The notes: generated by a model not told the origin, from the sequence alone. 64,000 nt of DNA from Deltaproteobacteria bacterium (GCA_016219005.1 JACRCN010000084.1:73042-137041); one strand, 5' to 3'; positions 23,270 through 45,299 are shown, counted from the first letter of the stretch. Made by a program: numbers and translations.

Positions 23270-23272
23270 TCG

Positions 23273-24768: not shown

Positions 24769-24788
24769 ATTTTTGAAATGGCTTCTAT
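24769..24788. repeat. Direct repeat copy B (ATTTTTGAAATGGCTTCTAT)
   Basis: 19/20 identical to 20248-20267. It overlaps the wrbA stop codon. Confidence 0.6.
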
Positions 24789-25387
24789 GCTGATTGCTTC
24801 TTAGCTACTTCCGCAACGTGGGCTCCCTGGAATCGAGCGATTTTTATTTCGTTCTCTGACGGTTGACGACTGCCATCGACGCCAGCAAGAGTGCTCGCTC
24901 CATAGGGGGATCCGCCGGTGATTTCACTCATGTTCATGATTTCCTGGCAGGAATAGGGAACTCCCACCACTATCATGCCGTGATGCAACAAGGTGGAGTG
25001 AAACGAGGTGATCGTGGTTTCCTGTCCGCCGTGCTGCGTGCCCGTGGACGTGAACACGCTGCCCACCTTGCCGATCAAGTCGCCTTTCAGCCACAACCGG
25101 CCGGTCTGGTCGAGAAAATTGCGCATCTGCGCGCACATGTTGCCAAAACGTGTCGGCGTGCCAAAAATGATGGCATCGTAGTTCGGCAACTCGTCAACCG
25201 CCGCGATCCCCGCCGCCTGATCGAGCTTGGCACCGGCTTTTCGTGCCACGTCTTCCGGCATCAGATCGGGCACGCGCTTGATGATGACCTCGGCGCCTTT
25301 GACGCTGCGCGCGCCCTCAGCCACCGCTTTCGCCATGGTTTCTATGTGGCCATACATGCTGTAGTAAAGAACGAGAACTTTTGGCAT
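24785..25387 (-). CDS. wrbA: NAD(P)H:quinone oxidoreductase WrbA (flavodoxin-like)
   Basis: '[22 protein letters not shown]' and '[10 protein letters not shown]'. A GAGGAG ribosome-binding site sits upstream. Confidence 0.9.
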
Positions 25388-25410
25388 GCTGTATCTCCTC
25401 TAGTGGTTTT

Positions 25411-25426
25411 TTGCGCAATTTGCAAA
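25411..25426. promoter_or_regulatory. Two abutting 8-bp palindromes TTGCGCAA and TTTGCAAA upstream of wrbA
   Basis: Read directly, 24-39 nt upstream of the wrbA start codon. Confidence 0.3.
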
Positions 25427-25890
25427 CGACTGCCACTTGGGACAGGAATTACCCCAACGGTCCGTGTTTGTTTGTTGGTTCTGCATCCCGGCACAGCTAA
25501 ATAAAAAAAATGAGATGAGCACAACCCACGCCACTGGCATAAATGTTTTCATTTTAGCAGCCCTATTGCCGGATGGTTATCGAATGGCTTCCTACCGGAG
25601 CTCAAACGGAGAACATCAGGCACGCTCGGAATTGCAGCGATCGTTCCTTGGCGGTAAATCTGGGGCATTACCCAATCCCTGTCAAGGGGGGATGATGATA
25701 GAAATTTATGGATTCTGCAGGGTTATCGGGAGAAGGAAGATGTCCGCCTCGGCCGATGGGTCCGGTTCGATGAAGTTTCACTGCCGAGTAGGTGGTCAGA
25801 AGGTCTTTTTCGAATACTGCTTTGGGCGGTTCACAATTCCATGTCTCCGGCTTCGCCGGAAGTCACTGACTTTTGGATTGACCCGCGACA

Positions 25891-26343
25891 TCAAAGGCTT
25901 CGTTCCAAGTTAATGATTTTGGAGGGGCTGAATTGGTTCGCGCTAAAGAAATGAATCAGTTTGGTATCATTCCAGTCGACCAAGGTGTTGATTTTTTGAA
26001 CGCCGAGTGTTCTCAAATGATCCATAAATTCATTGATCAACTGCTTACCGATACCCTTATGCTGGCAATAGGGATCGACGCCGATGGTATCCAGTGTTGC
26101 TTTTTCCTTGGAAATACCATATTCTCCTATGTAGAGTTCCCCCATTACAAAACCCACCACCGTGCCATCTTGGTCCTCGGCCACCAGCGACGCGGGCAAA
26201 TAATCTTTGGTTTGAAAAAGCTTTTCAAACTTCAGCTCATAGTACTCCGGCCGGGGCGTTTTAAGCACTTTCTCGTCAATCCCAACCACAGCGTCAAAAT
26301 CGCCGGCCTTCATGAGTCTGATTTTAATGGCGCTCTCGTTCAT
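25891..26343 (-). CDS. GNAT-family N-acetyltransferase
   Basis: 'VGFVMGE' and the 'QHKGIGKQLI' acetyl-CoA-binding motif. Its ATG overlaps the upstream stop (ATGA at 26340-26343). Confidence 0.8.
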   Translation of the reverse strand: MNESAIKIRLMKAGDFDAVVGIDEKVLKTPRPEYYELKFEKLFQTKDYLPASLVAEDQDGTVVGFVMGELYIGEYGISKEKATLDTIGVDPYCQHKGIGKQLINEFMDHLRTLGVQKINTLVDWNDTKLIHFFSANQFSPSKIINLERSL

Positions 26344-27185
26344 GAAGCTCCTTTCTCTTTACTCTTTCTGATGATGGTTCTTTCTGCTTCAGGAAGAGGA
26401 GGCGGAACAGGCTCGCCGGAAATCGTCTTCACCGCACCAAAGCGAGGGGGGCAGGCATCAAAGCAAGTTCCGCATTTTATGCATTTTTCCTGGTCAATTA
26501 CATGGATCCGGTTTTTGCCGCCCGCAATTGCCTCTACCGGGCATTTTTTAAGGCAAATCATACAGGCCTGGCACTTTTCCGGATCAATATGGTACGAGAT
26601 TACTTCACGAAATAACCGGTCTACCTCCTCACGGGTGAAAAGACCGTCATATTCTGCCTTGTTTTCAAGGCGTGACTCCAGCTTCTCCCTTTTAACTATC
26701 TTGATGTAGGGGGTGAGCTTTGCAACTTCTTGAATTTTAGACTTTAATTCATTTTTATCTATTCCTTCGCTTTTGCCAAGCGGTCCTAACTCCTTCACCT
26801 TTCGGCCAAAATCATTAATAACGTCGGCAAAGAGGATTCCTTCGCCGCCCGACATAAATTCAATCCTTAACCGTTCTGGGTTCAACCCTATGTGCTCCAA
26901 TATTTTTTTACCTAGAAGCACCATGTTAAGTGCATGATAATTTCCATGAGTAATATAATTGCATTCCTTTAAACGGCAACCACCAATAAACACCCCGTCC
27001 ATCCCATTTGAGAAAGCCCGGAGCACGAAGGACAGGTCGACTCTACCGGAACACATGACACGAACAAGCCTGATTTCAGGCGGATATTGCAGTCTGGAAA
27101 CTCCAGCCAGGTCAGCCGCGCCGTAGGCTCACCAATGGCATACAAAACCTATCATTTTGGGTCTGAATACAAGTCCTGCACTCAT
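26340..27185 (-). CDS. bamF: BamF-like MvhD-domain protein fused to a 2x[4Fe-4S] ferredoxin; predicted selenoprotein (in-frame TGA at 27129-27131)
   Basis: Reading from the ATG at 27185 (GGTGA ribosome-binding site upstream) gives 'MSAGLVFRPKMIGFVCHW-TGA-AYGAADLAGVSRLQYPPEIRLVRVMCSGRVD...', in frame with the 26340..27056 ORF. This matches the MvhD 'CxWC-SYxGAD' N-terminus with the second Cys replaced by TGA. C-terminal motifs are 'CQACMICLKKCP' and 'CIKCGTCFDACP'. Confidence 0.8.
27094..27106 (-). other. Hairpin downstream of the bamF-like TGA (bacterial SECIS candidate)
   Basis: On the minus-strand RNA, CUGGA-GUU-UCCAG starts 22 nt after the UGA. Only the core stem is reported; the extended structure was not resolved by eye. 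Confidence 0.35.
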
Positions 27186-27237
27186 TCGTTCTCACCTTCG
27201 TCTTTTAGAAATCCCGGGTTTATTCATGCGTATACTT

Positions 27238-30200
27238 CTACACATCCCCAAGCGCTGCATCAATTTGGCTCAAGAGCTCTGCATCGGTGAAATGCTTTAG
27301 GGTAATAGCGCCTGTCGGGCACCGTGCATTACAGAGACCATCTCCTTTGCAGATGACAGGATTAACTACTGCTTTTTTGCCCTGTCGTGTCTCGCGAAAC
27401 TCTATGGCATCATACGTACAGGCGGATATACATGCCCCGCACCCCGTACACTTTTTCTGATCCACTTCGCAAACAGAACCGGAGGCGATGACCGTATCGT
27501 GTGAGAGAAGCGTTAAGACCCGGCCGGCCGCTCCATACGCCTGGCTGATCGCTTCCGGCATATGCTTGGGATATTGAGCCATTCCACAAAGATAAACGCC
27601 GTCTGCCGCAAACTCCACCGGTTTCAATTTGACATGGGCTTCTTTGAAAAAATCATCCGGTCCCAAAGAGACCTTGAATAATCCTGCTACTTCCTTGGCT
27701 CCCGCGGAAGGAATAACGGCGGCAGCCAGGGCGAGGCAATCGGCATCTATCGCAAGCTTCTTGCCCAAAATATAATCGGTCACGGCAATCCTCAGGCGAG
27801 ACGTGCCACCCTCCTTAACGGTCTCCACCAGAGGCTTATCCAGCGGATCATAGCGGATGAACTTCACCTCCCTATTCGACGCTTCCCGGTAATAATCCTC
27901 ACTGAACCCATATGTCATCATGTCCCGATAGAGGATGTAGATATCCATCAGGGGATTTATCTCTTTCAGTTTCAATGCGTTCTTTATCGACACGCTGCAA
28001 CAGATCCTGCTGCAGTAATTTCTGTCTTCATTTCTGCAGCCTACGCATTGGATCATCACGAGACTTTCTGCGCTAATTATCTTTTCGTCTCCTTTGCTGA
28101 TCCGCTCCTCCAACTCAAGGTGGGTTATTACCCGGTCATCTTCCCCATATAGGTATTCGGTGGGCTTATATATATCAGCACCTATAGCAATGACGGCGGC
28201 ACCATGTTTTATCTCTTCGACCCCTCTTTCAGAATTCACCTTGGTTACGAAATTCCCAACATAACCCGTAGCCTCCGTGATGGTGGCATCCGTATATACA
28301 TGTACGGAGGGGTGTCGATATACTTTTTCTACAAGATCACGCAAATACGCCTGAACATCACGCCCATCCAGGGTGTAATGAATTCTGCGTGCCATTCCCC
28401 CCAGGTCCTTATTCTTTTCCACCAGGAAAACCTCGTGTCCCTGGTTGGCAATGGAAAGAGCACACGTCATGCCGGATACACCGCCACCCACCACTAACGC
28501 CGTCTTGTTTACGGGTAGGTCCAATTCCTGCAATGGCTCCAAATGGCACGCGCGTGCCACCGACATCCGGATTATATCCTTTGCCTTCTGTGTGGCTTCT
28601 TCCTTTTCTTTAGAATGGACCCAGGAGTTATGTTCCCTTATATTGGCCATTTCGAAGTAATACTGATTGATTCCCGCCTCCCGAAGGGTGTCCCGGAATA
28701 ACGGTTCAAGGGTCCTGGGGCTGCAGGCAGCGACTATCACCCGATTGAGCCCTTTTTCCTTTATAATGTCCGTTATTTCTTTGGCACAATTTGAAGCGCA
28801 TGAAAACAGCTGTTCCTGAGCGTAGACAACATGGGGTAAGGTCAAGGCATATTCAACTGTGGAAGGAACACTTACGACTCTTCCGATATTCGCCCCGCAA
28901 TGGCACACAAAGACCCCTATCCGGGGTTCTTCCCTGGAGACATCCTTCTCCGGCGGATAAATCCTTTCCTGGGTCAGCTTCCCTCGCCGGTAGTCAAGGA
29001 GTTCACCACATTGGGAGCCGGCTCCGCTGGCGGTAAAAACCGACTCGGGAATATCGGTGGGACCCTGGAAGGCCCCGCTTACAAAGATCCCGGGCCGGGT
29101 GGTCGAAAGGGGATTGGAAGGAATTGCTTTACAGAATCCGTGTGAATTGAGCTCGATTCCGAACTTATCCGCCAGATCCTCATAATCCGCAGGTGGATTC
29201 AATCCAACGGATAATACCACAAGATCGAATTCTTCCTCCTTTACCCCGTCCTCGGTCGTAGCGTATCGTATCGTTACATTCTTGCTTTCCTGGATCTCTT
29301 TCCCGATTGAGACATAGCTTCTTATAAATCGGACCCCGGGAAGGTTCTCCGCTCTTTGGTAAAAGCGTTCGAAATCTTTTCCGTAGGAACGAATATCGTT
29401 ATGGAATATGGTACACTCCGCCCCGGCGTCATGATCCTTTGTCAAAATCACCTGTTTCTGGGTATAAGTGCAGCATACGGCTGAGCAATAGCTGTTATCG
29501 CCCGGGGTAACCCGTCTGGAACCGACGCATTGAATCCAGGCTGTTTTATGGGGATGCTTTTTGTCGGAAGGGCGCAGGATCTCACCTTCGTATGGCCCGG
29601 TGGAGCATAACAGTCGTTCATAGTCCATACTGGTGACCACGTTCTGCATCTTCCCGTAGCCATAGTCGCCCTTCACCCCAGGGTCAAATGGCTCAAGCCC
29701 GGGAGACAGAATTATCGAAGCAACCTTAATTTCTATCTTCTCCGGCTTTTGCTGAAAATCAATGGCATCATTTTTACAGACGCCTTCGCAGATACGACAC
29801 TTCTTCTCTTTAAGGTAGAGACAGCTTTCATCGATATATGCGACAAGGGGAATCGCTTGGGAGTAGTATATATGGACGGCTTTATTTTTCGATATTTCCT
29901 GATTAAAAGAATCAGGGTATTTGACGGGGCAGTATTCTACACATGTAGTACAACCCGTGCATTTGTCTTCTAAAATGTATCGGGGTTTTTTAAGCAGGGT
30001 TACCTTGAAGTCCCCTGCCTCTCCTTCGACACTGTCGATTTCAGTTAACGTCAGGATCTCTACATTGGGATGCCGGCCGACCTCGACCAGTTTGGGCGAG
30101 AGTATTCACATGGAACAGTCGTTGGTTGGAAAGGTCTTGTCAAGCTGCGCCATATGGCCGCCGATGGCTGGTGCTTTCTCAACCAGGTAAACCTTGAAAC

Positions 30201-30336
30201 CGGCAATGGCAAGATCGAGGGAGGCCTGAATACCGGAAATTCCTCCACCCACCACCATTACATCCCCAAAATTAGTATTCACAAGACCTTTACAAAACAG
30301 TTGAACTTTTTCTTCAAGCAACAGTTCTTTTTGCAC
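27238..30336 (-). CDS. bamE: BamE-like double HdrA-type flavoprotein/FeS protein (about 1030 codons); predicted selenoprotein (in-frame TGA at 30106-30108)
   Basis: I translated 30336 to 29676 by hand. It reads '...[16 protein letters not shown]...[33 protein letters not shown]...[12 protein letters not shown]...[11 protein letters not shown]...' with no other stop and runs into the 27238..29676 ORF in the same frame. There are two FAD GxGxxG sites, the HdrA motifs 'CSAVCC' and 'CSRICC', and a C-terminal 2x[4Fe-4S]. The GTG start has a GAGGTGA ribosome-binding site. Confidence 0.85.
30073..30090 (-). other. Hairpin downstream of the bamE-like TGA (bacterial SECIS candidate)
   Basis: On the minus-strand RNA, CUGGUC-GAGGUC-GGCCGG forms a 6-bp stem (including G-U pairs) starting 15 nt after the UGA. 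The loop contains GGUC, reminiscent of the E. coli fdhF SECIS apical loop. Confidence 0.45.
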
Positions 30337-30404
30337 TTCCGATCACCTCATCCAATATTTTAAGCCCGCAATGTCCGGGCTGGCCGGGGTTAACCGCACT
30401 GACT

Positions 30405-31556
30405 CTAAATAACTTCCTGTATGATCTCGGTGATGTCCTTAATTTCTATTTTATCGGCAACACCAATGGTTGACCTGCTATCCTCGAAATTGGCGATGCA
30501 ATAAGGGCAGGAAGTAACCAGCACCTCGGCTCCGACACCGATCGCCTGTTCCAACCTCAAATCGGAGAATCTTTCACCCTTTGGAGTTTCCATCCAAATC
30601 CGGCCGCCTCCCCCTCCGCAACAGAGGCTATCACTGCGCGATTCTGGCATCTCAATCAGTTCCAGACCAGGTACCTTCTTCAAGACCTCCCGGGGTTCGT
30701 CATATATGCCGTTGTGCCGACCCAGGTAACATGGGTCGTGATAAGTAACTTTCTTCCGATACGCCTTGTTAAGCTCAAGCCTTCCTGCATTCATGAGCTG
30801 GAATAAATATTGCGCGATATGAACCACCTCAAAGTCCACCCTAAATTCGGGATACTCGTTCTTGAAGCTATGGTAGCAATGAGGGGAAGAAACAAGGATT
30901 TTTTTCACCCCATTATCGATAAACGCTTTGATATTTTCCTTGGCCAAGCGTTTGAATAAATCCTCATCGCCGGTCTTGCGGATGCTCTCTCCGCAGCAAT
31001 TCTCCTTGGATCCCAGTATGCCGTAATGAACAGCCGCTCGGTTAAGAATAGTGGCGGTAGCCGCCGCCGCCTTTTTCAATCTTGGGTCATAGCTGGGGTA
31101 GCAGCAGGGGAAATATAATATTTCGGTGCCCTCGGCGAAGGTTTTTACAGAAAGACCTTCAGCCCAATTTGACCTATTATTGCGCTCTTCATTCAGAGGG
31201 TTACCGCGGCCACGGAGGCTCGCGCTCACGGTGCGGATAGGTCGAACCGGACCCGGGAAAACCCCGTATTCCGTGGCAAGCTTGCGTAAGGCTACCCCGG
31301 ATTCGATCTGTTTTACGTCCCGGGGGCATTGCTGAGGGCATCTTCCGCAGGTCGTACAACGCCAAATATCTTCACTTTCTATATCCGTCAAACCGAACGC
31401 AGCTTCGCGGACTATCTTGCGCATGCTGAAGATTCTAATCCTATTCCATGGGCAAACCACATCGCATAAGCCGCATTGAAAGCACGATTTGAAGGCTTCT
31501 CCACCTTTGGCTTTGATGGCATCTACGATCTCTTTAAAATCAGCTACATTCTCCAC
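30405..31556 (-). CDS. bamD: BamD-like HdrD-type FeS protein (2x[4Fe-4S] plus two CCG domains)
   Basis: 'CFQCGLCDVVCP', 'CTTCGRCPQQCP'; CCG-domain motifs 'PCCY', 'CCGES', 'DPCYLGR', 'CCGGGGG'. Confidence 0.8.
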   Translation of the reverse strand: MENVADFKEIVDAIKAKGGEAFKSCFQCGLCDVVCPWNRIRIFSMRKIVREAAFGLTDIESEDIWRCTTCGRCPQQCPRDVKQIESGVALRKLATEYGVFPGPVRPIRTVSASLRGRGNPLNEERNNRSNWAEGLSVKTFAEGTEILYFPCCYPSYDPRLKKAAAATATILNRAAVHYGILGSKENCCGESIRKTGDEDLFKRLAKENIKAFIDNGVKKILVSSPHCYHSFKNEYPEFRVDFEVVHIAQYLFQLMNAGRLELNKAYRKKVTYHDPCYLGRHNGIYDEPREVLKKVPGLELIEMPESRSDSLCCGGGGGRIWMETPKGERFSDLRLEQAIGVGAEVLVTSCPYCIANFEDSRSTIGVADKIEIKDITEIIQEVI

Positions 31557-31591
31557 GGTCGTTCTTAACCCTCTATTTTCGACGGATGGTT

Positions 31592-32140
31592 TTAGCCCTT
31601 CTTGGAGATTGACATCCGGGCGACGGTTTCCATTATCTTGTCAAGTCCAAATTTGTTTACCAACGATTCCAATCCTGTCTTCAACTCTTCTGCGTTCGCT
31701 TCTTCTTCTACTTCCTCTTCTCTTTCTTCGTAGATCAGGGCATCCGTTATGCACCACTGAACGCACAAGGGCTCTGATAAAGGCGGATCGCTTAAACACA
31801 TATCGCATTTTAGCGGCAGACCGGAATCGGGCTCCTTGAAAAGATCCCTGGATGGGCAGGAAGCCCTGCAGAAGGCACACTCTTCGTATTCCTTTCCGTC
31901 AATCGTGTACTTGTCTCGGCCCATGCATTCGGCTTTAGCATACTCACCCGCATATACAGGAACATATATGTCTTTTAACGGTTCATGAATAACACGAATA
32001 CGAGACCTCGCTGGATTGTTGCTGCTGTATTTCGGCGCAGCGTGGAAGGCGGAGCAGGCTAGCTCACATGCCCGGCAACCGTTGCATTTATCAACATCAA
32101 CTTTTATTGATTTAACAATTTTCTTTTTTTTCTCACCCAT
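31592..32140 (-). CDS. bamC: BamC-like polyferredoxin subunit
   Basis: 'CNGCRACELAC', 'CAFCRASCP', 'CDMC...CVQWC'. Size and position directly after the AOR-like gene fit. Confidence 0.75.
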   Translation of the reverse strand: MGEKKKKIVKSIKVDVDKCNGCRACELACSAFHAAPKYSSNNPARSRIRVIHEPLKDIYVPVYAGEYAKAECMGRDKYTIDGKEYEECAFCRASCPSRDLFKEPDSGLPLKCDMCLSDPPLSEPLCVQWCITDALIYEEREEEVEEEANAEELKTGLESLVNKFGLDKIMETVARMSISKKG

Positions 32141-32161
32141 GATAGTTAGCGCCTCTTCACT

Positions 32162-34165: not shown

Positions 34166-34290
34166 TTCTTTCTCCTTCTATATTACCTGAATTCGTGGCA
34201 TGCTTTTTGGCCAATCATGATGGAGCCGATTTGTTTATGATTTTACTGACGATCCGCGTCGGCCCGGAGGTCAGGGCGGAGCGTTTTCAG

Positions 34291-34329
34291 CTATAAATTA
34301 ACTATAAAATAGCTATATTGTATTTATAG
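34291..34329. promoter_or_regulatory. AT-rich nested palindrome / operator-like element at the predicted bamB transcription start
   Basis: Outer arms are CTATAAA (34291-34297) and TTTATAG (34323-34329). The central perfect palindrome is ATAGCTAT (34309-34316). Confidence 0.35.
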
Positions 34330-34351
34330 GAGGTTCCTCGGATTTTGTCAA
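34323..34351 (-). promoter_or_regulatory. Sigma-70-type promoter candidate for the bamB-like operon
   Basis: On the minus strand: TTGACA (34351-34346), a 17-nt spacer, then TATAAA (34328-34323). It lies about 150 nt upstream of the bamB-like start. Confidence 0.5.
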
Positions 34352-34618
34352 GAAAAAAACTCATCGGAGGGGAATTGCGGAATTCAGGAATCGACGGCTC
34401 TGGATCAGCGCCAGTTCCGCTATCGAAGGCGACGAACTTCCGTATGGCAGGTGAAATGTGGTGGCCAAATCGGCTGTAAGCGGAAGCCGACTGCGGGGGC
34501 GCATGCCTACCGCTTATGGCCAGAGCCTGAGAAAGGACCTCGCAGCCTCTGCCCTCCAGCCTGCGGCGAATCGCAACCGCCTTCCAAGCCGCACCAGCAG
34601 ACGGGGTTTTATAACAGC

Positions 34619-34960: not shown

Positions 34961-34986
34961 TCAGCATGGCCTCCGTAAGCAGCCAT

Positions 34987-35024
34987 AAAAAAGGGGAGAG
35001 CAGGTCTTATTTCCGCTCTCCCCC
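34987..35024 (-). terminator. Rho-independent terminator ending the TRAP/CoA-transferase operon
   Basis: On the minus strand: GGGGAGAGC, a 13-nt loop, GCTCTCCCC, then TTTTTT (the A-run at 34987-34992 on plus). Confidence 0.75.
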
Positions 35025-36531: not shown

Positions 36532-36593
36532 CTTATTCCCTCCATAAACAGTCAGATGTTGGACCAATCATCTCGAACCGATAGGGATACCGC

Positions 36594-37124
36594 TCAATCA
36601 CCGATCTGACGCAGGTCGGGCAGATCGAGAGGTAATGCCCCCATGAGCCGGCGGAAGTTCACCCAAATGTCGACCACCAACTGGAGGCAGGTCAGCCAGC
36701 ACCCCAGGGGGACGAGAGCTTTGGCCCACCAGATCTGCATTTGCACCGAACCCCAGCGGAATTCGTTGATTTCATAAGACCGAAGAGCTTCCCTGGCGCT
36801 TTGCCATCCCATGACAGCCAGAAAAATAAAACAGAGGACCCAGCAGAGCGTATCCAGTTTGATCGCGCTGCGGATTGAAAACCTTCTCAGCCCCAGGACA
36901 ACCCGCGTGTGTCCTCTGGCCTCTTGGGTCCAGCTGAGGGTCATAAACACGGCGATGACCAACAGTACCTCATTGAACTCGAAGACCCCGGCAATAGGAT
37001 AATTGAAAACGTAACGACTGGTAGTATCCAGGGTGGTGCTTATCATCATCATGGCGATCGCGGCCGCAGCAATGAAGCTGAAGAATATATTGATTTTATT
37101 GAGCCAGCGCGCAAGGTTCTCCAT
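36594..37124 (-). CDS. dctQ: TRAP transporter small permease (DctQ family)
   Basis: A 4-TM protein of about 176 aa between the dctP-like and dctM-like genes. Confidence 0.8.
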   Translation of the reverse strand: MENLARWLNKINIFFSFIAAAAIAMMMISTTLDTTSRYVFNYPIAGVFEFNEVLLVIAVFMTLSWTQEARGHTRVVLGLRRFSIRSAIKLDTLCWVLCFIFLAVMGWQSAREALRSYEINEFRWGSVQMQIWWAKALVPLGCWLTCLQLVVDIWVNFRRLMGALPLDLPDLRQIGD

Positions 37125-37204
37125 CTCGCAATATACCTCCCCTTGGGAAGGCAGCCGGAACGAATTAGGACATCCGCCCGGCTACCTTCATAGCACCATC
37201 GTTT

Positions 37205-38338
37205 TTACTTTTTTTCGTACTTCGCCTGATAGATTTCATAGGGATTTTTGAGCTTGCCCTGCGGCTCATACTTGGCGATGAGGCTGCGTGCTTTATCGAT
37301 GAATTCGACCCCATTGTACTTCGCTGGCTTGGCGACCTTTTCGGCCCAGTCGTTCACCTGCGCCGGCTGCACCATGCTGGTGGCCTTTTTGATCTCTTCA
37401 TCCGACCACTTTGTGAATTTGGCACCGTTCTTGACCATGACATCGAGGCTTTCTTCCAGAAGCTTGTTGTACAACTCGACATACTTGTATTTGTAAACGT
37501 CATCCGCGGTTTTTTTAAATACATCCTTCAGGTCGTCGGGCAGGGAATTCCACACGTCCAGGCCCATGACCACCGTGGTGGGCGCATGGGCCCCGGCGCC
37601 GACTTCGATAATGTTGGGAGCCTGCTCATAGAGCTTCGCTTTTTCGGCCGTGACAAAGCAAAACGCGAAGACTCCGTCGAGAATCCCGCGCTCCAACGAC
37701 TGATAGACTTCCGCGGCCACCACGGGCATTCCCCTTCCTCCCAGGCGGTCGATGGTTTCAGCACCAATTCCGTAGCCTCGGATTCTCATCCCCTTGAGTT
37801 CGGAGACTTGAGTGAGGGGCTTTTTGGAAAAAAGCGGGCAATAATCCCAGTTGGTGAAATACAGGACTTTGCAGCCGTTTCTTTTTTCCCACTCATCCTT
37901 CAGAGGGGGATAGGTATCGTACATTTCCTGGCAGACCTTCAGCAGGGTGTCGGCGTGGTTGCAGCCCATGAAGTACCACTCCAATCCTCGGCTGAGCGGC
38001 ACCTGGGCAGGATAATAGCCGTAAGAAATCAGGGATAATTCTGAAAGCCCGTCCCTGACCGCCTGCAAATGTTCTCCCACTTTGTGAAGGGAGGATGCCC
38101 AATATTTTTCGATTTTGATCCGGCCGCCGGATCGTTCCACCACTGTGTCGAGATACCAGTTGTCAAGCTGGGCCGGGGCCGCTGACGCTTGGATGTAGCA
38201 GTCGTACTTCATGGTAATGACTTTGCCCGACTGCGGTGCGGCGTGCAAGATGCCCCGGGCCGGGCCCATGAGGAGTCCCCCCATGGCGGCTGCAGCGGTT
38301 GATTTCAGAAATGTCCTTCGATCCATTCCCTTGCCCAT
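37205..38338 (-). CDS. dctP: TRAP transporter substrate-binding protein (DctP family)
   Basis: Twin-arginine-like signal 'MDRRTFLKSTAAAAMGG' and DctP-like length and sequence. Confidence 0.85.
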   Translation of the reverse strand: MGKGMDRRTFLKSTAAAAMGGLLMGPARGILHAAPQSGKVITMKYDCYIQASAAPAQLDNWYLDTVVERSGGRIKIEKYWASSLHKVGEHLQAVRDGLSELSLISYGYYPAQVPLSRGLEWYFMGCNHADTLLKVCQEMYDTYPPLKDEWEKRNGCKVLYFTNWDYCPLFSKKPLTQVSELKGMRIRGYGIGAETIDRLGGRGMPVVAAEVYQSLERGILDGVFAFCFVTAEKAKLYEQAPNIIEVGAGAHAPTTVVMGLDVWNSLPDDLKDVFKKTADDVYKYKYVELYNKLLEESLDVMVKNGAKFTKWSDEEIKKATSMVQPAQVNDWAEKVAKPAKYNGVEFIDKARSLIAKYEPQGKLKNPYEIYQAKYEKK

Positions 38339-38397
38339 GTTTCATTCCTCCTTCCTTGGGTTAAAGGCTCAGTGAAGCCCAGTCCAATTTCCCGAAA

Positions 38398-38811
38398 TCA
38401 GGGTTTAAAAACCAAAGAGGTCTGCCGCGCATGCCCCTCCCCCTTGGAAGCAAAATCAGCTTGGAGCGGCATTCCCACCCGGATCTGATCGGGGTTCCTT
38501 GCATCCACGCCTGTGATCCGCGACACGGCCTTGACACCTTCGTCCAATTCCACCACACCGACAACGTATGGATTGTTCCGGCCGAAGCCTTCCCGGGCCA
38601 TCGCCGGCGGGGCCACCACGATGCTGGTGAAGCCCGCCAGCTTGCCCTTACCTTTCAATTCCACCCATTCCAGATCGCTGCCATGGCACGAAACGCAGAT
38701 GGGTCGTGGCGGCAGCGCGAGTGCGCTGCACTTTTTACAGCGCGAGCCCATGATCCGGCGGTCGTTGAGATACTGCTCGTAGGAGGCGTCATTAAAAGGC
38801 CTTTTCTCCAT
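38398..38811 (-). CDS. Zn-ribbon/OB-fold protein (DUF35 family), thiolase partner
   Basis: 'CKKCSALALPPRPICVSC' zinc ribbon followed by an OB fold. The ATG at 38811 has a GGAGAGGAGG ribosome-binding site. It directly follows the thiolase-like gene. Confidence 0.8.
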   Translation of the reverse strand: MEKRPFNDASYEQYLNDRRIMGSRCKKCSALALPPRPICVSCHGSDLEWVELKGKGKLAGFTSIVVAPPAMAREGFGRNNPYVVGVVELDEGVKAVSRITGVDARNPDQIRVGMPLQADFASKGEGHARQTSLVFKP

Positions 38812-38815
38812 GATG

Positions 38816-40081
38816 TTACCTCCTCTCCAGAATGGTGAAGGTGCAGGTCCCGCCGGTTCCCCCGAGGTTATGCGCCGCGCCGATGCGCAGGTTGGGGTTG
38901 GGGACCTGTCTATTGCCGGCCTGGCCCCGCAACTGGGTCCAGACCTCGTAGAGTTGGGCAACCCCTGTTGCACCCACGGGATGGCCTTTCGATTTGAGGC
39001 CTCCTGAAGTATTGATGGGCCTGGGGCCGTCGAGGCGGGTCATCCCGTCGGCCACGGCTCTGTGGGCTTGCCCCGGTTTAACAAAACCCAGATCCTCCAT
39101 GGTCACGAGTTCGGCGATGGAGAAGCAGTCGTGGACCTCTGAAAACTGTATGTCGTTCGGGGTCAGGCCGGACATTTCATAGGCCGCGTTGCCTGCCGCA
39201 CGGGTGGCCTCATAGCTTGTGAGATCTTTTTTGGCATGGAGGCTGTAACCGCTGCCCTGGCCCAATCCGGCCACGTGGATCGGCACATCCGTGAAGTTGC
39301 GAGCCATGTCTTCGGCTACCAGGAGCATGCAGGCCGCTCCGTCGCTGATGGGACAGCAGTCAAAGAGATGCATGGGCCAGGCTACCGGCGGGTTCGCCGC
39401 AGGGTCCGCAAGATAGGCCTTCTCGTCCTTCCAGGCGGGGACGGGCTCTGCCTTTTTCTTGGACCTTTCGATCCGGGCGTTCATGAAATCCCGGACGGTC
39501 ATTGGAAACTGGGCCTTGGGGTTAAGCGGGGCGTTATTGTGGCTTTTGATGGTCACGTTAAAAAGCGCTTCCCGGGTGGCCCCGTACTTGGCGAAATAGG
39601 CGGTCGCCATCGTCCCGAAAACCCCGGGGAAGGTGAATCCCGCCGCCACTTCGTACGGACTCGCCGCCATCGCTAATCCCTCGGCCACTTCTTCGGTCGA
39701 ACATTTTGACATCTGCTCGAAGCCGCCTACCAGCACGATGTCATACATTCCCGAGGCGATGGCCAGCACCCCTTCCCGGAACGCCAGGGCGCTGGACGCG
39801 CAGGCGCCTTCCGTGCGGGTGACGGGCTTGGGCACGTTCCCCAGCAGATCGGCTATGATCGGGGCCCAGTGGGATTGTTTCACAAAAAAATCATTGGTAA
39901 AGTTTCCGACATAGACCGCATCGATATCTTTCGGGTCGATGCCCTTGTCCACGGAGTTGACCATTTCCGTGTAGGCTTCGGCAAAGAAATCCTTGCAGTT
40001 GCGGTCTTTGAAAAGGCCCAACTTGGTCAGTCCGCCGCCGACAACCGCAACTCCCCGGGCCAACTTTCGTTTTCTTGCCAT
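38816..40081 (-). CDS. Thiolase-superfamily protein (SCP-x/BbsB-like non-canonical thiolase)
   Basis: 'RGVAVVGGGLTKLG', active-site 'EGACASSALAF', C-terminal 'HNLGGTGG'. The start was moved to the ATG at 40081, preceded by AGGAGG. Confidence 0.85.
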   Translation of the reverse strand: MARKRKLARGVAVVGGGLTKLGLFKDRNCKDFFAEAYTEMVNSVDKGIDPKDIDAVYVGNFTNDFFVKQSHWAPIIADLLGNVPKPVTRTEGACASSALAFREGVLAIASGMYDIVLVGGFEQMSKCSTEEVAEGLAMAASPYEVAAGFTFPGVFGTMATAYFAKYGATREALFNVTIKSHNNAPLNPKAQFPMTVRDFMNARIERSKKKAEPVPAWKDEKAYLADPAANPPVAWPMHLFDCCPISDGAACMLLVAEDMARNFTDVPIHVAGLGQGSGYSLHAKKDLTSYEATRAAGNAAYEMSGLTPNDIQFSEVHDCFSIAELVTMEDLGFVKPGQAHRAVADGMTRLDGPRPINTSGGLKSKGHPVGATGVAQLYEVWTQLRGQAGNRQVPNPNLRIGAAHNLGGTGGTCTFTILERR

Positions 40082-40156
40082 CGGCTCCTCCTTAACTGCA
40101 CTATGAAAATGCCATGTGGAAGATAATAAGAGTGCTCGCAACTGTTTCCGGTCGGC

Positions 40157-40936
40157 TCATCCCTTGCGGATAATATATCCATCCGGATCAACCTCTTTCC
40201 GAAGGACGTCAAGTTCTTTTTCGGTCGGAGGCGGGGTCGCGACAATATTCTTGGCCTTGAGCAGGGGGAACCCACAATTTTTCTGCACATCCTCGAAGGT
40301 GAAGCCGTGGTGGATGGATTCCACCTGCATGCGCTTGGTCTCCTCATCGTACCCCAGAATGGCCATGTTGGTAATCACTTTATGGGGGCCGCTCTCTTCC
40401 GGCAAACCGGCTTTCTCGCGTGCTCCCGGCCCGTCCAGATAGCCAGGGGAGGTGATGAAGCTGACCTTCTCGACGAAACGCCGGGCATCCTGCGGAGTGA
40501 TCACCAGAATCCTCCAGCAGAAGGAGGCAAAATCGTTGGCACCTCCTGATCCGGGCAGGCGCGCTTTAGGCTTTTCCCAATCCCCGATAACCGTGGAGTT
40601 GAGATTGCCATACATGTCGATTTGGGCCCCCCCGAGAAATGTGTAATCCACCATTCCCCGCTGGCAGCTCTCCATGATATCGCACATGCCGCTGGCCATG
40701 ACACTCCTGTAATAGGACCGAGAGTCTCCCACGGATATGGGCATTTTGCAGAGCACGGGAGCGATTCCCCCGGCCTCAAACATGATGACGAGATCCGGGG
40801 CATGCATCTTATGGGCAAGCATCGAGGCGGCCAGTGGCGCCCCCGTGCCAACCCCTACGGTGGCTCCGTTTTCCAGAATGCGGGAAGCCGCTATCACCAT
40901 CAGTTCCATCGTATTGAATTCAGGCATGGCATTCAC
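40157..40936 (-). CDS. Family I CoA-transferase subunit B (glutaconate CoA-transferase beta-like)
   Basis: 'VGVGTGAPLAA', 'FEAGGI', 'GGAQIDMYGN'. It overlaps the subunit A stop. Confidence 0.8.
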   Translation of the reverse strand: MNAMPEFNTMELMVIAASRILENGATVGVGTGAPLAASMLAHKMHAPDLVIMFEAGGIAPVLCKMPISVGDSRSYYRSVMASGMCDIMESCQRGMVDYTFLGGAQIDMYGNLNSTVIGDWEKPKARLPGSGGANDFASFCWRILVITPQDARRFVEKVSFITSPGYLDGPGAREKAGLPEESGPHKVITNMAILGYDEETKRMQVESIHHGFTFEDVQKNCGFPLLKAKNIVATPPPTEKELDVLRKEVDPDGYIIRKG

Positions 40937-41933
40937 TCCTTTTTGTTCTCAAATCGATCATGTGCTCTTCGGCACGGAGTTGATTGATACGTTTGATGCC
41001 GCCGCAGAGTTCCAGGTACCCCTCGAAGTCCTGCACTCCATAGATGTATTGATCCATGAACTTTTTGAAAGACGCAGGCTCCTTCTCGCTTTCCAACCAG
41101 AGCTTTAGTTGCTCTTCGTCGGAAAAGTACTCATCCACCATGTTTCCCGGGTAGGCGCCGAAGGGGACTTCGCAAACGGCATCGACCAGGAAGTAAGGAA
41201 TCTGGGTGGCTGACGGATCGCGACGGATCTCATCGTTGTGGATCAACCGTTCGCAGGTGATGATCAGCCGCTTGGAAGCCCGGGCCAATTCCAAATCGCA
41301 GACCGATATTCCCTTGAATCGGGCGTTGCCGTAAATGTCCGCCTCGTGAACGTGGATGACCGACACGTCCGGCCATACGGCCGGGTACAGGCAGTAAAGC
41401 TTTCCGGTAAATGGGCACCGGGCGACCTTGGCGGCGCTTCGTTTGAACGTATCCGTCCCCATGACATTGCGCCCCGGAAGGTACGACACGCCCATCGCTG
41501 CCGCCTTCAACCGGAGGGCCAGGGCGTAATTGGTCCATTCACAGAACTGCACCTTTCCGCTCTCGGAGTAACGGCGGGCATTGGGGGAGAGCCCGCGAAT
41601 CTCAACGCCGATGATGTAGGCGATGTCGCAGCGATTGAAGGTTTCTCCCGCAGCCAGAATCTGGTAATCGTGGGTGGAGGTGTGGCCGAAGAAAGCCAGA
41701 TTTTTTCTTCTTTGCCGGACGATTTCGTGGCACGCAGCCACCGGCGTACGGTTGGCGCCGAATCCGCCGATGCACAGATAATCTCCGTCATGAACGAATT
41801 GGGCGATGGCGTCTTTCAGGGGTATCACCTTGTTAGCAAGGGCTCTCTTTTTCTTACGGAAGAATGCTCGCGCCTTGTCAGCGTCCGGGTCCATGAAAAG
41901 AGGCCCTTCACCTTGAGCGATGACTTCATACAT
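40920..41933 (-). CDS. Family I CoA-transferase subunit A (glutaconate CoA-transferase alpha-like)
   Basis: A 337-aa protein with 'GDYLCIGGFG', paired with subunit B. An AAGGAGG ribosome-binding site lies upstream. Confidence 0.8.
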   Translation of the reverse strand: MYEVIAQGEGPLFMDPDADKARAFFRKKKRALANKVIPLKDAIAQFVHDGDYLCIGGFGANRTPVAACHEIVRQRRKNLAFFGHTSTHDYQILAAGETFNRCDIAYIIGVEIRGLSPNARRYSESGKVQFCEWTNYALALRLKAAAMGVSYLPGRNVMGTDTFKRSAAKVARCPFTGKLYCLYPAVWPDVSVIHVHEADIYGNARFKGISVCDLELARASKRLIITCERLIHNDEIRRDPSATQIPYFLVDAVCEVPFGAYPGNMVDEYFSDEEQLKLWLESEKEPASFKKFMDQYIYGVQDFEGYLELCGGIKRINQLRAEEHMIDLRTKRSECHA

Positions 41934-42132
41934 AAAAAAACCTCCTTTGTTGATGTTGCCAGCGGGTGGACAATAGGATCGCTTTTTTTCGGGGTGCCGG
42001 GAGCGGCTGGGTGCGGGGCATCATCTTGGCAGTTGCTCCTTGCTCAGCAGGAGGAGATATCCGCAGTTCGGTCTGCTTCGGACCGTCTTGCCCCTTGCAG
42101 GAGCCAAGGGGGATGGTTAAACCGGTCACTGG

Positions 42133-42148
42133 AGCAATTGGCGTGCCA
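42133..42148 (-). promoter_or_regulatory. Sigma-54 (-24/-12) promoter for the CoA-transferase/thiolase/TRAP operon
   Basis: The minus strand reads TTGGCACGCCAATTGCT, a near-perfect match to YTGGCACGrNNNTTGCW, about 200 nt upstream of the CoA-transferase A start. Confidence 0.75.
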
Positions 42149-42212
42149 ATCCCATGGAAATCATGGCCGTAACAAAACGAGATGAATTATCAATACATTT
42201 CCGCATTCGAAA

Positions 42213-42227
42213 GGTTTTCCGAAAACC
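42213..42227. promoter_or_regulatory. Inverted repeat GGTTTTC-C-GAAAACC upstream of the sigma-54 promoter
   Basis: Perfect 7-bp arms read directly, about 70 nt upstream of the -24 element. Confidence 0.35.
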
Positions 42228-42253
42228 GAAGGGTGCTAAAAAATGCATGGGGG

Positions 42254-42290
42254 TTTTGCAGGCTTGCGAAACATTCGCAGGTTTGCAAAA
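42254..42290. promoter_or_regulatory. Candidate enhancer (UAS) palindrome for the adjacent sigma-54 activator
   Basis: TTTTGCAGGCTTGCGAA-ACA-TTCGCAGGTTTGCAAAA has a perfect core TGCGAA-ACA-TTCGCA and matching outer TTTTGCA/TGCAAAA arms. It lies about 110-140 nt upstream of the -24 element. Confidence 0.45.
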
Positions 42291-42331
42291 AAACGTCCGG
42301 GGGAAAAACAACGCTGCGGAAAGGAACCGGG

Positions 42332-43708
42332 TCACTTGGAAAGGGCGTGCTGCTTCAACTTTCGGTAAAGGGTCGCCGGGTGAACCTGGGCAAAATGGGA
42401 GGCGTCTTCAAAATTTCTGGAAAACTTGCGCAAAAGATTTTCTAGATATTTCCTTTCGAAGATCTCCTTGGCCTTCTCGTAGGATAAATCCATGAAGTCG
42501 CATTCTTCATCCGAGCGCAGAATGGTGAGATGCTCTTGGATGTCTATTTCGGTAATGACATCCGCCCCGTGCAGGGCCACAATTCTCTCGATCACGTTCT
42601 GAAGTTCTCTCACGTTGCCTGGCCAATCATGGTTCATCAGGACTTGCAGGGCTTTGGGATCAAAGGTCTTTTTGCCCTTATTCATGCGGGAACAATAATT
42701 TTCTACAAAATGGTCGGTGAGCAGGGCAATGTCATCCCGCCGGTCTTTGAGCAGGGGAAGATCGATTTTAATCACATTGATCCGGTAAAACAGGTCCTTG
42801 CGGAACCGCCGCTTGACCACCTCCTCCTTGAGATCTTTATTGGTGGCCATAATCATGCGCACATCCATTGGATAGGACTTCGTTCCTCCCACCCGGACCA
42901 CTTCTCTTTCCTGCAGGGCCCGGAGCAGGCGGATCTGCAGGGAAGAGCTGGCCTCGCCAATTTCGTCCAGGAAGAGAGTCCCCCCGTCAGCCTCCTCGAA
43001 ATATCCCTTGGTGGTCTTCGTTGCCCCGGTGAAGGCTCCCCTTTCATAACCGAAAAGTGTGGATTCTAGAAGACTTTCAGGCAAGGCCCCGCAATTAACA
43101 GTTAGGAATCCATATTTTTTACGTCCGCTGTTTGAGTGAATGGCTCGGGCCACCAATTCTTTGCCTGTGCCGCTCTCACCCTGTATGAGAACATTGCTTT
43201 CAACTTCGGAGGCCTTTTTGATGAACTCGAAAACTCTCTTCATACCGGCGCTTCGGCCGATGATTTGCGGGAACAGGCCTTCCGTCTTGATCTGTTGCCT
43301 GAGCGAAAGGTTTTCTTTTTCGAGTTGCCCCTGGTAGATCGCGTTTTTGATCGTGATCAGCACCTTGCCGGTCTCTTCAAAAGGCTTCATTAAAAAATCG
43401 AAAGCCCCCAGTCTCATGGCACGGACCGCATCCTCCACGGTCCCGTATGCGGTTATCATGATGACCGGCATCAAAGGGTTCATTTCGCGGATTTGTTTGA
43501 GAATGTCGATCCCGTTTGCATCTGGAAGGCGGATATCGAGGATTACCAAAGAATAGGAGGCTTGTTGAAGGGCTTGCATCCCCTCGACGCCGCTGTCCAC
43601 TGTATGTATGTGAGCGACGGTTTTTTCAAGGAGCTTCCGGAAGAATTCCCGGGCAAAAGGTTCGTCGTCGATGACAAGGACTTTTTCTTCATTGCTATTG
43701 GTGCTCAA
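42332..43708 (-). CDS. Sigma-54-dependent response regulator (NtrC family: receiver, AAA+, Fis-type HTH)
   Basis: 'LVILDIRLPDANG', 'GESGTGKELVARAIH', 'GAFTGA', and a C-terminal HTH 'ATLYRKLKQH'. Confidence 0.92.
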   Translation of the reverse strand: MSTNSNEEKVLVIDDEPFAREFFRKLLEKTVAHIHTVDSGVEGMQALQQASYSLVILDIRLPDANGIDILKQIREMNPLMPVIMITAYGTVEDAVRAMRLGAFDFLMKPFEETGKVLITIKNAIYQGQLEKENLSLRQQIKTEGLFPQIIGRSAGMKRVFEFIKKASEVESNVLIQGESGTGKELVARAIHSNSGRKKYGFLTVNCGALPESLLESTLFGYERGAFTGATKTTKGYFEEADGGTLFLDEIGEASSSLQIRLLRALQEREVVRVGGTKSYPMDVRMIMATNKDLKEEVVKRRFRKDLFYRINVIKIDLPLLKDRRDDIALLTDHFVENYCSRMNKGKKTFDPKALQVLMNHDWPGNVRELQNVIERIVALHGADVITEIDIQEHLTILRSDEECDFMDLSYEKAKEIFERKYLENLLRKFSRNFEDASHFAQVHPATLYRKLKQHALSK

Positions 43709-45194
43709 GGCAACTCCTCAGGGGCAGAACGACTGCGAAAGTGGTGCCCTTTCCCGCTTTGCTTTCCGCTTTCAAATGCCCATCGTGGTTTTTGATGATC
43801 TGATATGCAAAACTCAATCCAAGCCCATGCCGTCCCGGATTATTACCCACTGTGAAAAAGGGCAGGAAAATCTTATTCAGATATTCCTTCGGAATTCCCC
43901 GACCCGTATCAGAAAAAAGAATCTGCAATTCATTTTTTTTCTCATTCATTGCGGTTGCAACCCGCAACTGCCCTCCTTTGGGCAGCATCGCCTGAGCCGC
44001 GTTGGTGAGAATGTTCAGGAATGATTGCTTCAGTTGGATGCCATCCCCGGAGATCAGCGGGACTTTTGTATCGAAATTCACGTTTATGCGGATGGTGCCA
44101 AGCTTATCGCCGAACTGTTCCTTAAGCGTGCGGATGGAATCCCTCAAGACGTCGTGGATATCCGTCTGGGTAAACGTGAGGTGGGGATCCTTAAAACAGT
44201 TGAGCACGCTGGTTATGATCTTGAGGCATTCCTTGCCGGCACGGTGGATCGTTCGTGCCATTTCTTTCTTGGTATCCTCCTCGTCCATCTGGCGCAGGAG
44301 CATCTCTGAAAAATTAACCACCCCGATGAGCGGGTTGTTCAACTGGTGGGCAATTCCACCCATCAACTCGGAATAAAGGGCCAGTTTTTCGGTCAGAAAA
44401 AGCCTCTCTTCCAGGGCTTTCTGCTCGGTCAGGTCGCTCAGCAGCATCATTTTGGCGATCTTCCGGCCGGCGGCATTTTCAACCTCCGAAGCCAGCATTG
44501 AAGCCGGGAACAGGTTCCCGTCTTTCTTGATGCATAAGACCTCGGGTCGAAACGCCTGGCCCTCCTTTCCCGAGAAAAACATGGGTTCCTTGAACAAACG
44601 ATCAACCTTCTTTTTGAGCAACTCCCGCCTGCGGTAGCCGAAAATCCTCTCTGCCGTGCGGTTGAAGATCAGAATTTTGCCTTCCAAATCGGTGCTGATC
44701 ACAATGTTGGGGGAGGATTCTATTATGGACTTGAGGAATTTTTCGGACACCTGCAACTCGTCTGTCCGGGCTTCGACAAGCCGTTTTTCATAATAGAGTT
44801 CCTTTTCGAGCTCGTTGATCAGAATGAAATACCGGCCTGACGAAAAACGGGCTCCCCGGGCACGATAGGTCATCTGCTCGGGGTTGTATTGAGGGATATA
44901 CCGGTCAATGACGAAATTGAAAGGGGTCCCTTTTTTCAATAGATTGGCGTAGTGCTTTTTCAATCCCTGTTCCATCGTTTTGGGGAAAGTTTCGGCAAAG
45001 GTTTTCCCCAGGATATTTTTACGGGGTATCCGTGAGGTCTCCTCCTGCTTCCTGTTCATCCTCAAGACCCTTCCATCCTGATCCAGGATCATGAGACCGA
45101 TGGGCAGGTTTTCAATCAAGTCTTCGACGAAGCTCATCTTTCTGGAAGTGAGTGGTTTATAGGGCCTCATGCATTTCCCCTTTGCTATACGCAT
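43695..45194 (-). CDS. PAS-domain sensor histidine kinase (cytoplasmic)
   Basis: Two PAS-like regions, H-box 'AHQLNNPL', 'NAAQAM', 'GHGLGLS'. It overlaps the regulator start. Its own start is uncertain (45194, 45170 or 45137). Confidence 0.88.
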   Translation of the reverse strand: MRIAKGKCMRPYKPLTSRKMSFVEDLIENLPIGLMILDQDGRVLRMNRKQEETSRIPRKNILGKTFAETFPKTMEQGLKKHYANLLKKGTPFNFVIDRYIPQYNPEQMTYRARGARFSSGRYFILINELEKELYYEKRLVEARTDELQVSEKFLKSIIESSPNIVISTDLEGKILIFNRTAERIFGYRRRELLKKKVDRLFKEPMFFSGKEGQAFRPEVLCIKKDGNLFPASMLASEVENAAGRKIAKMMLLSDLTEQKALEERLFLTEKLALYSELMGGIAHQLNNPLIGVVNFSEMLLRQMDEEDTKKEMARTIHRAGKECLKIITSVLNCFKDPHLTFTQTDIHDVLRDSIRTLKEQFGDKLGTIRINVNFDTKVPLISGDGIQLKQSFLNILTNAAQAMLPKGGQLRVATAMNEKKNELQILFSDTGRGIPKEYLNKIFLPFFTVGNNPGRHGLGLSFAYQIIKNHDGHLKAESKAGKGTTFAVVLPLRSCLEHQ

Positions 45195-45299
45195 CGAAGC
45201 GCATCGATAAAAACCGGCATGGGCGTTGGCAGGCTCGCTGTCCGGGCGGATTTCCGTTCCTCAAAAATTCAGGATGTGACTCTGTGCTCTGTGCCTTTT

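Follow-up and report, generated by a model that had tools for sequence, protein, structure and literature searches.

Two catabolic cassettes of separate histories in a putative composite genomic island of an uncultured high-GC Desulfobacterales bacterium

We analyzed a window of 64,000 nucleotides from a deltaproteobacterium (GCA_016219005.1 JACRCN010000084.1:73042-137041), in which an AT-richer block at 24785-45299 lies among genes of clearly higher GC content. Our reading, to which we assign a probability of about 0.7, is that the block is a composite genomic island in which two horizontally acquired catabolic cassettes are stacked downstream of the NAD kinase gene (NADK) of an uncultured, high-GC member of the Desulfobacterales. 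Judged from its genes, cassette 1 is the short-form core of a class II (ATP-independent, tungsten/selenium) benzoyl coenzyme A (CoA) reductase with predicted dearomatizing activity, and cassette 2 is a putative sigma54-regulated operon for the uptake and CoA activation of an organic acid. The two cassettes have separate histories and carry no mobility genes, and at least one of them appears to predate the separation from a sister species, which carries it as well.

The deviating composition of the block was evident at every level analyzed, with the rest of the window and the corresponding loci of relatives (0.60-0.675 GC) serving as the baseline. Bulk GC is 51.9% at 24785-45299 versus 62.6% in both 1-24784 and 45300-64000. 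The 20 1-kb windows inside the block have a mean GC of 0.519 and a maximum of 0.593, so that all of them lie under the mean of the 38 native windows (0.633; standard deviation [sd], 0.026; minimum, 0.585), by 1.5 to 6.8 sd (z = -1.5 to -6.8; Mann-Whitney p = 3.6e-10). This bears out an earlier sequence-only reading, which had described an AT-richer segment at these positions; its spot counts on single lines (32-47% GC inside and 68-73% outside) are local extremes and not means. GC at third codon positions (GC3) is 0.77-0.87 per gene in the flanking native genes, whereas it is 0.46-0.57 in the bam genes and the adjoining GNAT gene of cassette 1, 0.3 off the neighboring genes, 0.68-0.73 in the transporter, thiolase, and CoA-transferase genes of cassette 2, and 0.62-0.64 in its two regulators. 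Tetranucleotide profiles of the bam region and of cassette 2 correlate with host DNA at r = 0.73-0.75 and 0.87-0.90, respectively, compared with 0.95 between the two native flanks. Composition and codon usage thus deviate from the host in the way known from genomic islands, and the codon-usage and tetranucleotide checks that the earlier reading had proposed came out in its favor (GC3, 0.46-0.73 versus 0.77-0.87; r, 0.73-0.90 versus 0.95).

Jensen-Shannon segmentation placed change-points at 25340, 34390, 42170, and 45300, with two further ones at 15770 and 17960 that bound a second low-GC patch. The right edge of the block is therefore where it had been drawn before; the left compositional edge is not: shifted inward from 24785 by about 550 bp, it coincides with the 5' end of wrbA, because wrbA itself is intermediate in composition (GC, 0.567; GC3, 0.69). 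The positions of all features are compiled in Table 1.

Table 1. Features of the low-GC block and its surroundings, in window coordinates
Feature	Position	Strand	Remarks
bam cassette (cassette 1)	25890-34399	-	48% GC; bamBCDEF-GNAT
GNAT	25891-26343	-	Start codon overlaps bamF stop
bamF	26340-27187	-	MvhD-like; predicted Sec-TGA at 27131-27129
bamE	27238-~30336	-	HdrA-like; predicted Sec-TGA at 30108-30106
bamD	30405-31556	-	HdrD-like; CCG domain x2
bamC	31592-32140	-	Fer4 protein
bamB	32162-34165	-	AFOR_N and AFOR_C domains
Conserved region upstream of bamB	34166-34399	-	Matches other bam loci up to ~34397
Strain-specific scar	34400-35083	-	SDR remnant and terminator hairpin
SDR C-terminal half	34619-34960	-	High GC; YxxxK motif present, Rossmann half missing
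Intrinsic-terminator hairpin with U-tract	~34987-35024	-	Strong, by folding; 9-nt loop
Cassette 2 (module 2)	35084-45179	-	54% GC
Glyoxalase remnant	35084-35205	-	Last ~40 codons
dctM	35206-36567	-	TRAP transporter
dctQ	36594-37124	-	TRAP transporter
dctP	37205-38338	-	TRAP transporter; Tat signal
DUF35/OB-fold protein	38398-38811	-	Domain search
SCP-x-type thiolase	38816-40081	-	Best solved relative 6ESQ
Family I CoA-transferase B	40157-40936	-	Domain search
Family I CoA-transferase A	40920-41933	-	Domain search
Predicted sigma54 -24/-12 site TGGCACGCCAATTGC	42134-42148	-	TGGCAC-N5-TTGC, perfect match
sigma54-dependent response regulator (HK/NtrC pair)	42332-43708	-	REC-AAA+; ~50% GC
PAS histidine kinase	43695-45194	-	~50% GC
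Right junction	45195-45299	.	L087 homology ends at 45179; close-relative homology begins at 45292-45298
Left junction spacer	24492-24784	.	Homology to relatives' MacAB operon ends at 24480-24491
Family A hairpin repeat	~24638-24770	.	~130 nt; long imperfect hairpin, -67 kcal/mol; lineage-specific
wrbA	24785-25387	-	Type IV NAD(P)H:quinone oxidoreductase; NF002999, 357 bits
wrbA-to-cassette spacer	25388-25889	.	Low GC, noncoding
Second low-GC patch	15771-17960	+	50.5% GC; outside the studied block

Comparison with relatives showed that the block is missing from the corresponding site elsewhere. NADK (45300-46193), the native gene at the right edge, has its closest relatives (82-94% identity) in metagenome-assembled genomes (MAGs) of uncultured Desulfobacterales/Desulfobacteraceae with 60-67% GC, and the right flank, NADK-PutA-LysE-LivFGMHK, is syntenic in loci L002-L008. 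Look-ups of the exact NADK and BamB sequences of the window gave no match. DNA homology to every close relative ends at 45292-45298, that is, at the NADK stop codon. No island gene was found past NADK in any of the eight relatives whose contigs extend beyond it (L001-L005 and L007-L009; 78-94% DNA identity over NADK), and in the syntenic relatives this holds for 10 kb; the contig of L006 ends at the NADK gene. Absence from the same locus in close relatives, as expected of a genomic island, was thus observed in 8 relatives. Besides, the DNA that they carry past NADK differs: L002 has sugar-phosphate and trehalose genes on a stretch of 53-57% GC, L003 shares just 0.8 kb of this stretch, and the 82% group has ABC transporter genes there. 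Since the content differs from relative to relative, the site appears to be a lineage-wide variable hotspot.

On the left, a MacAB-type efflux operon of native GC (20268-24491) has counterparts in L089 and L090 whose DNA is 89-92% identical; in both of them, an ABC-2 permease operon and not wrbA stands ahead of it. The left flank was searched for beside NADK in the relatives and was not found. We therefore rejected a simple insertion between two former neighbors. The flanks themselves seem to have been rearranged. In L090, a 91%-identical relative, a hybrid-kinase gene matching 14.4-15.8 kb is joined to MacAB via a VapBC pair, which replaces 15.9-20.25 kb, so this part of the window is variable too. 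Past the VapBC pair in L090, 124 nt from the 3' end of the MacB gene occur a second time (6228-6351), another recombination footprint at the locus. Thus, of the proposal that horizontally acquired modules had been inserted into native DNA, the foreign composition and the existence of the modules as discrete units elsewhere held, whereas the simple insertion did not; the block is conserved in part across the lineage but is not syntenic, so the lineage-wide conserved synteny that would have argued for native genes was not seen.

The Bam-like and TRAP/CoA-transferase gene content was as the earlier reading had described it. BamB matches Geobacter metallireducens BamB (PDB 4Z3W) over its full length (residues 1-651; 1255 bits), and its homologs carry the Joint Genome Institute (JGI) annotation BamB, which is consistent with an orthologous, W-pterin-containing catalytic subunit of the AOR family. 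BamC, BamD, BamE, and BamF are encoded in this order behind it, and both BamE and BamF are predicted to contain selenocysteine (Sec), each at a conserved Cys position with an in-frame TGA (NDCSM-U-ILSPK in BamE and FVCHW-U-AYGA in BamF). Both TGA codons are kept in 7/7 homologous cassettes, and about 25 nt downstream of them are near-invariant among these seven, synonymous sites included, as expected of selenocysteine insertion sequence (SECIS) elements. Because SECIS folding energies alone were not significant (z about 0), the argument for Sec rests on conservation. A Sec-containing BamE has been documented in Desulfococcus multivorans, in a paper that also sets out the BamB-I model (PMC5109826).

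The cassette shares the B-C-D-E-F order, the HdrD-, HdrA-, and MvhD-like subunits, and the Sec-UGA codons with BamBCDEFGHI of G. metallireducens (PDB 4Z3W) and D. multivorans, but it differs in that bamGHI are not adjacent and in that the cluster is compositionally foreign to its host. The NuoEFG-like module BamGHI was not found in the 64-kb window; its place behind bamF is taken by the overlapping, co-translated GNAT gene, followed by wrbA. In the BamF of this bamGHI-lacking cluster, the MvhD domain is fused to a ferredoxin domain of the 2x[4Fe-4S] type, which forms the C terminus. Conservation of the GNAT protein is unusually high (80-89% identity across 295 metagenome stretches, from sediment contigs); its gene directly follows bamF in 13/54 informative loci and stands near bam genes, in several orientations, in others (loci L091-L170).

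The history of cassette 1 can be traced through its copies elsewhere. In L081-L083, the bam genes are present at 85% DNA identity over 26358-34219 without GNAT, as a low-GC stretch (0.50) amid flanks of 0.60-0.67, between GntR/amidohydrolase and Mrp/complex-I-like genes. The L081 contig comes from the same two ENA assemblies as the NADK contig of L002, and the L081-L083 contigs carry the native tetranucleotide signature of the window (r, 0.90-0.93) together with an interspersed repeat, family B, described below. L081-L083 therefore probably represent a sister lineage, with L081 being the same organism as L002. JGI contigs L092 and L095 match the cassette, GNAT included, at 89% DNA identity, and this homology stops exactly at the GNAT stop codon (25890); the remaining DNA of L092 has about 48% GC. 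In L095, the DNA 1.6 kb past the GNAT end of the cassette contains a high-GC open reading frame (ORF; 4716-5900, minus strand) whose product is similar to reverse transcriptases of group II introns.

A maximum-likelihood tree of bamB, bamD, and bamE has the form (L092,(L163,L165),(window,(L081,L083))), with a support of 0.999 for the clade of window and sister copies and with longer branches in the high-GC hosts. In low-GC hosts, the bam genes have a GC3 of 0.48-0.49; in the window it is higher, at 0.53-0.55, and in L081 higher still, at 0.58-0.64. Synonymous divergence (dS) between window and L081 bam genes is 0.53-0.75, and that between native genes of the window and L002 is 0.2-1.2. The sister position in the tree, the graded GC3, and the native-range dS together argue for one acquisition before the species split and not for a recent insertion. 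On the simplest reading, cassette 1 would most likely have come from a Desulfobacterota-like donor of about 47-50% GC and most likely entered before the split from the sister species; it would then have drifted partway to the GC of its host and been relocated, its neighborhood being reshuffled.

Alternatively, the window species and its sister may have acquired bam genes independently and fairly recently, from related low-GC donors and at different sites, with no relocation. We consider this unlikely, although it is the best of the competing explanations. It would account for the completely different sites in the window and L081-L083, for GNAT being present in the window and in none of L081-L083, and for the raw DNA identity, in which the window copy is nearer to L092 (89%) than to L081 (86%). 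BamB proteins that are 86-92% identical under many phylum labels, implying frequent transfer, fit it as well. The tree, however, joins window and L081/L083 at the support given above, the higher identity of L092 can be put down to the shortness of its branch, the bam genes of both high-GC hosts show an elevated GC3, and dS is comparable to that of native genes. As to their distribution, the 86-92%-identical BamB homologs (P0002-P0120) come from MAGs labeled Dehalococcoidia/Chloroflexota, Fibrobacterota, Candidatus Glassbacteria, Desulfomonilaceae, and Syntrophobacteraceae, which implies a very wide, fairly recent sharing of the gene or mis-binning.

Cassette 2 is likely to serve organic-acid uptake, CoA transfer, and thiolytic cleavage, as indicated by its domains. 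The three subunits of a tripartite ATP-independent periplasmic (TRAP) transporter, DctP, DctQ, and DctM, are encoded together on three adjacent genes (PF03480, PF04290, and PF06808). The best solved relative of the thiolase is the DUF35-associated acetoacetyl-CoA thiolase 6ESQ (E 3e-74), and the benzoylsuccinyl-CoA thiolase BbsB (7PXP) matches more weakly (E 5e-44); an identity as BbsB was rejected, the NCBIfam equivalog score being 162.7 bits against a cut-off of 750. As in the archaeal acetoacetyl-CoA thiolase/HMGCS/DUF35 complex (6ESQ) and BbsAB (7PXP), the SCP-x-type thiolase gene is followed by that of a zinc-ribbon/OB-fold DUF35 protein; unlike in these systems, the pair is accompanied here by a TRAP transporter and by a CoA-transferase of family I that is GctAB-like.

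The regulation of cassette 2 appears to be encoded within it. The predicted sigma54 site is the sole perfect match in the window. It is located 200 nt upstream of the CoA-transferase genes, in the gap that separates them from the activator gene. Sites with 1 mismatch were not above chance in number in the window, and the argument consequently rests on the position of the single perfect site. A kinase, a REC-AAA+ activator, and a -24/-12 promoter would together make up a sigma54 two-component regulon. In G. metallireducens, BamVW, a PAS kinase and a sigma54-dependent regulator, govern aromatic-degradation genes. The pair in the window has the same domain architecture, PAS-HisKA-HATPase kinase and REC-sigma54 AAA+ activator, and has a perfect sigma54 site before the adjacent operon; the likeness is one of architecture, and the pair differs from BamVW in traveling with the CoA-transferase/thiolase/TRAP operon, here and in L087 and L171, and not with bam genes. 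Cassette 2 would thus most likely be a self-contained regulon, in which the PAS kinase and the sigma54 activator drive the operon from the sigma54 promoter; the TRAP transporter would take up an organic acid, which would be activated by the family I CoA-transferase and then thiolytically cleaved by the thiolase/DUF35 pair.

The same module was found in L087 in the same gene order and at 83-88% DNA identity, with protein identities of 88-94% for the TRAP subunits, 85-93% for the DUF35 protein, thiolase, and CoA-transferase, and 86-88% for the regulators. The flanks in L087 have 55% GC, like the module itself, and just upstream lie AbiEii and an integrase fragment, which was seen next to the module in L087 only. 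L087 additionally has hydantoinase-like genes, a glyoxalase gene that is intact, and, between the genes for the DUF35 protein and DctP, one for a short-chain dehydrogenase/reductase (SDR). L171, a contig of about 48% GC, carries a further, more distantly related copy of the module. Regulators and enzymes differ in GC in L087 (about 50% and 58%) just as they do in the window (about 50% and 57%), and this part of the compositional mosaic is therefore intrinsic to the module. Accordingly, the description of the block as a mosaic of modules applies to its two cassettes but not to the GC difference between regulators and enzymes.

Between the two cassettes lies a high-GC gene remnant, which the sequence-only reading had seen at 34.6-35.0 kb and taken as an interruption of the segment. 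The remnant is real, being the C-terminal half of an SDR (GC3, 0.89), but it is no proof of native DNA between two insertions. Strains X2 and X4, which share about 97% identity with the window, have a different sequence of 519 nt in place of 34400-35086, and in them the glyoxalase gene, of which the window retains a remnant, is intact beside dctM, as it is in L087. As these strains have both cassettes with a different spacer, the cassettes must have been adjacent already in the ancestor of the species, and the scar is strain-specific. The idea that the SDR remnant proves host backbone between two insertions is accordingly weakened by the conspecific strains that do not have it. A derivation of the remnant from the SDR of L087 was rejected as well (23% identity).

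Two related ideas go further than the composite island and are, taken jointly, quite doubtful, even more so than independent acquisition. First, bamBCDEF(-GNAT) may be a discrete 8.5-kb mobile cassette with conserved ends; if so, it would spread among phyla and relocate without a recombinase of its own, landing at intergenic hotspots of hairpin repeats resembling repetitive extragenic palindromes or miniature inverted-repeat transposable elements (REP/MITE-like). In the literature, we did not find a paper describing the mobility of this cassette. Second, its pairing with cassette 2 may constitute an undescribed peripheral route. Such functional coupling would mean that a β-oxo or aryl-substituted acid is taken up and benzoyl-CoA is released for the reductase.

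It is very improbable that no transfer occurred, that is, that the genes are ancestral and their low GC is held by selection, such as the codon usage of anaerobic catabolic genes that are rarely expressed or constraints from SECIS elements and regulatory sites. The presence of cassette 1 in at least two species of the clade and a tetranucleotide signature of cassette 2 that is not far from the host's would agree with ancestry. Yet GC3 of the bam genes is 0.3 off the neighboring genes, the boundaries fall sharply at the ends of genes, just where homology to relatives is lost, DNA of 80-89% identity is found in genomes of 41-55% GC without standing out there from its surroundings, and neither cassette is at this locus in the 8 close relatives extending beyond NADK.

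Least credible of all is a chimera of assembly or binning, in which low-GC DNA of another organism had been joined to a high-GC contig: the contig is metagenome-assembled, its GC steps are sharp, and all Logan assemblies break at 24705-24750, but a Logan contig of X1, the probable source run, spans 34135-45637 with 0 mismatches, and contigs measuring 12.7-18.2 kb that stem from other, unrelated studies (X2, X3, and X4; about 97% identical) bridge the junctions of histidine kinase with NADK and of bam genes with cassette 2. The right junction is spanned by X1 (0 mismatches), X2, X3, and X7. With the middle and right junctions spanned by independent assemblies, a chimera is refuted for both. The break at 24705-24750, a multicopy stretch of very high word depth, is explained by the hairpin repeat of family A together with a tandem duplication of 40 nt. 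To the left and right of the break, depth is equal in X2 (47.9/49.5) and X3 (26.7/24.7), and it is plausible that the left junction is genuine.

The family A repeat at the left junction has copies in the intergenic DNA of the clade (L002 16240-16307, L005 5388-5475, L008 5013-5101, and L089 19040-19132) and also in L084/L085. The family B interspersed repeat, of about 145 nt, lies at 60645-60793 in the window and is shared with relatives (L081 3915-4474, two copies; L001 3052-3188; L002 11406-11544 and 17992-18052; L046 10871-10990); in L002 and L046, copies stand directly downstream of NADK, at the variable hotspot. A 19/20-nt direct repeat, ATTTTTGA[G/A]ATGGCTTCTAT, is the sole such pair in the window; its copies A (20248-20267) and B (24769-24788, abutting the wrbA stop codon) bracket the MacAB operon and not the island, and we gave it little weight, as about 0.1-0.2 chance matches are expected per 64 kb by our estimate. 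At copy A, 25 nt are missing from strain X2, and X2 and X3 have the 40-nt tandem duplication at 24747-24786. The spacer between wrbA and cassette 1 is polymorphic too, with 254 nt (25552-25805) missing from conspecific strains. These hairpin and direct repeats are candidate recombination substrates, and our favored guess is that the cassettes were integrated via homologous or illegitimate recombination at the interspersed hairpin repeats.

Several points weigh against the composite island as we propose it. The compositional baseline is the window and the relatives' loci and is thus not genome-wide, and cassette 2 is only a mild compositional outlier. That L081 and L002 are one organism is a matter of inference; the dS ranges of bam and native genes overlap but are wide, and with BamB 86-92% identical across phyla, separate acquisitions from donors close to each other keep some probability. 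No independent contig runs across the left junction (24705-24750), and a wrbA homolog was not found in any of the loci compared. Furthermore, no integrase or transposase domain was present among the annotated ORFs of 24785-45299, the window contains no recombinase gene, no tRNA was found and no Rfam family was matched, and the repeat search yielded no direct or inverted repeats bracketing the island. The lack of mobility genes and tRNA at the edges, already noted by the sequence-only reading, therefore holds. Like known catabolic genomic islands, the block deviates in GC, GC3, and tetranucleotide composition, has sharp borders, is absent from the locus in relatives, has coherent cargo, and sits at a variable hotspot; it differs from them in lacking an integrase, a tRNA target, and flanking direct repeats, and in consisting of two cassettes with separate histories, at least one of which is probably shared with the sister species and partly ameliorated.

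Two further features of the window lie apart from the block. The second low-GC patch, at 15771-17960, covers the gene of an NMT1-like periplasmic binding protein (16149-17138) but, of the hybrid histidine kinase gene that follows (17280-20186; 968 amino acids), only the sensor part at the 5' end, so that a GC step falls inside the kinase ORF, which suggests a domain-level replacement. At 61346-61517 and 61889-62060, a direct repeat of 172 nt (71% identity; spacing, 543 nt) occurs where ORF frames are ambiguous.

The composite island would represent an ordinary kind of gene transfer for catabolic genes, and its general significance is modest, because both the horizontal transfer of catabolic clusters and the existence of short bam clusters are already familiar. 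For annotators, the cassette holds a warning, in that both predicted Sec-containing bam genes appear broken under standard gene calling. For the organism, it points to a route by which uncultured high-GC Desulfobacterales of groundwater and wetlands may have obtained the key enzyme of anaerobic ring reduction together with an organic-acid activation regulon. As a dated example, apparently sister-shared, partly ameliorated, and relocated, it may also help to calibrate how long foreign catabolic DNA remains recognizable.

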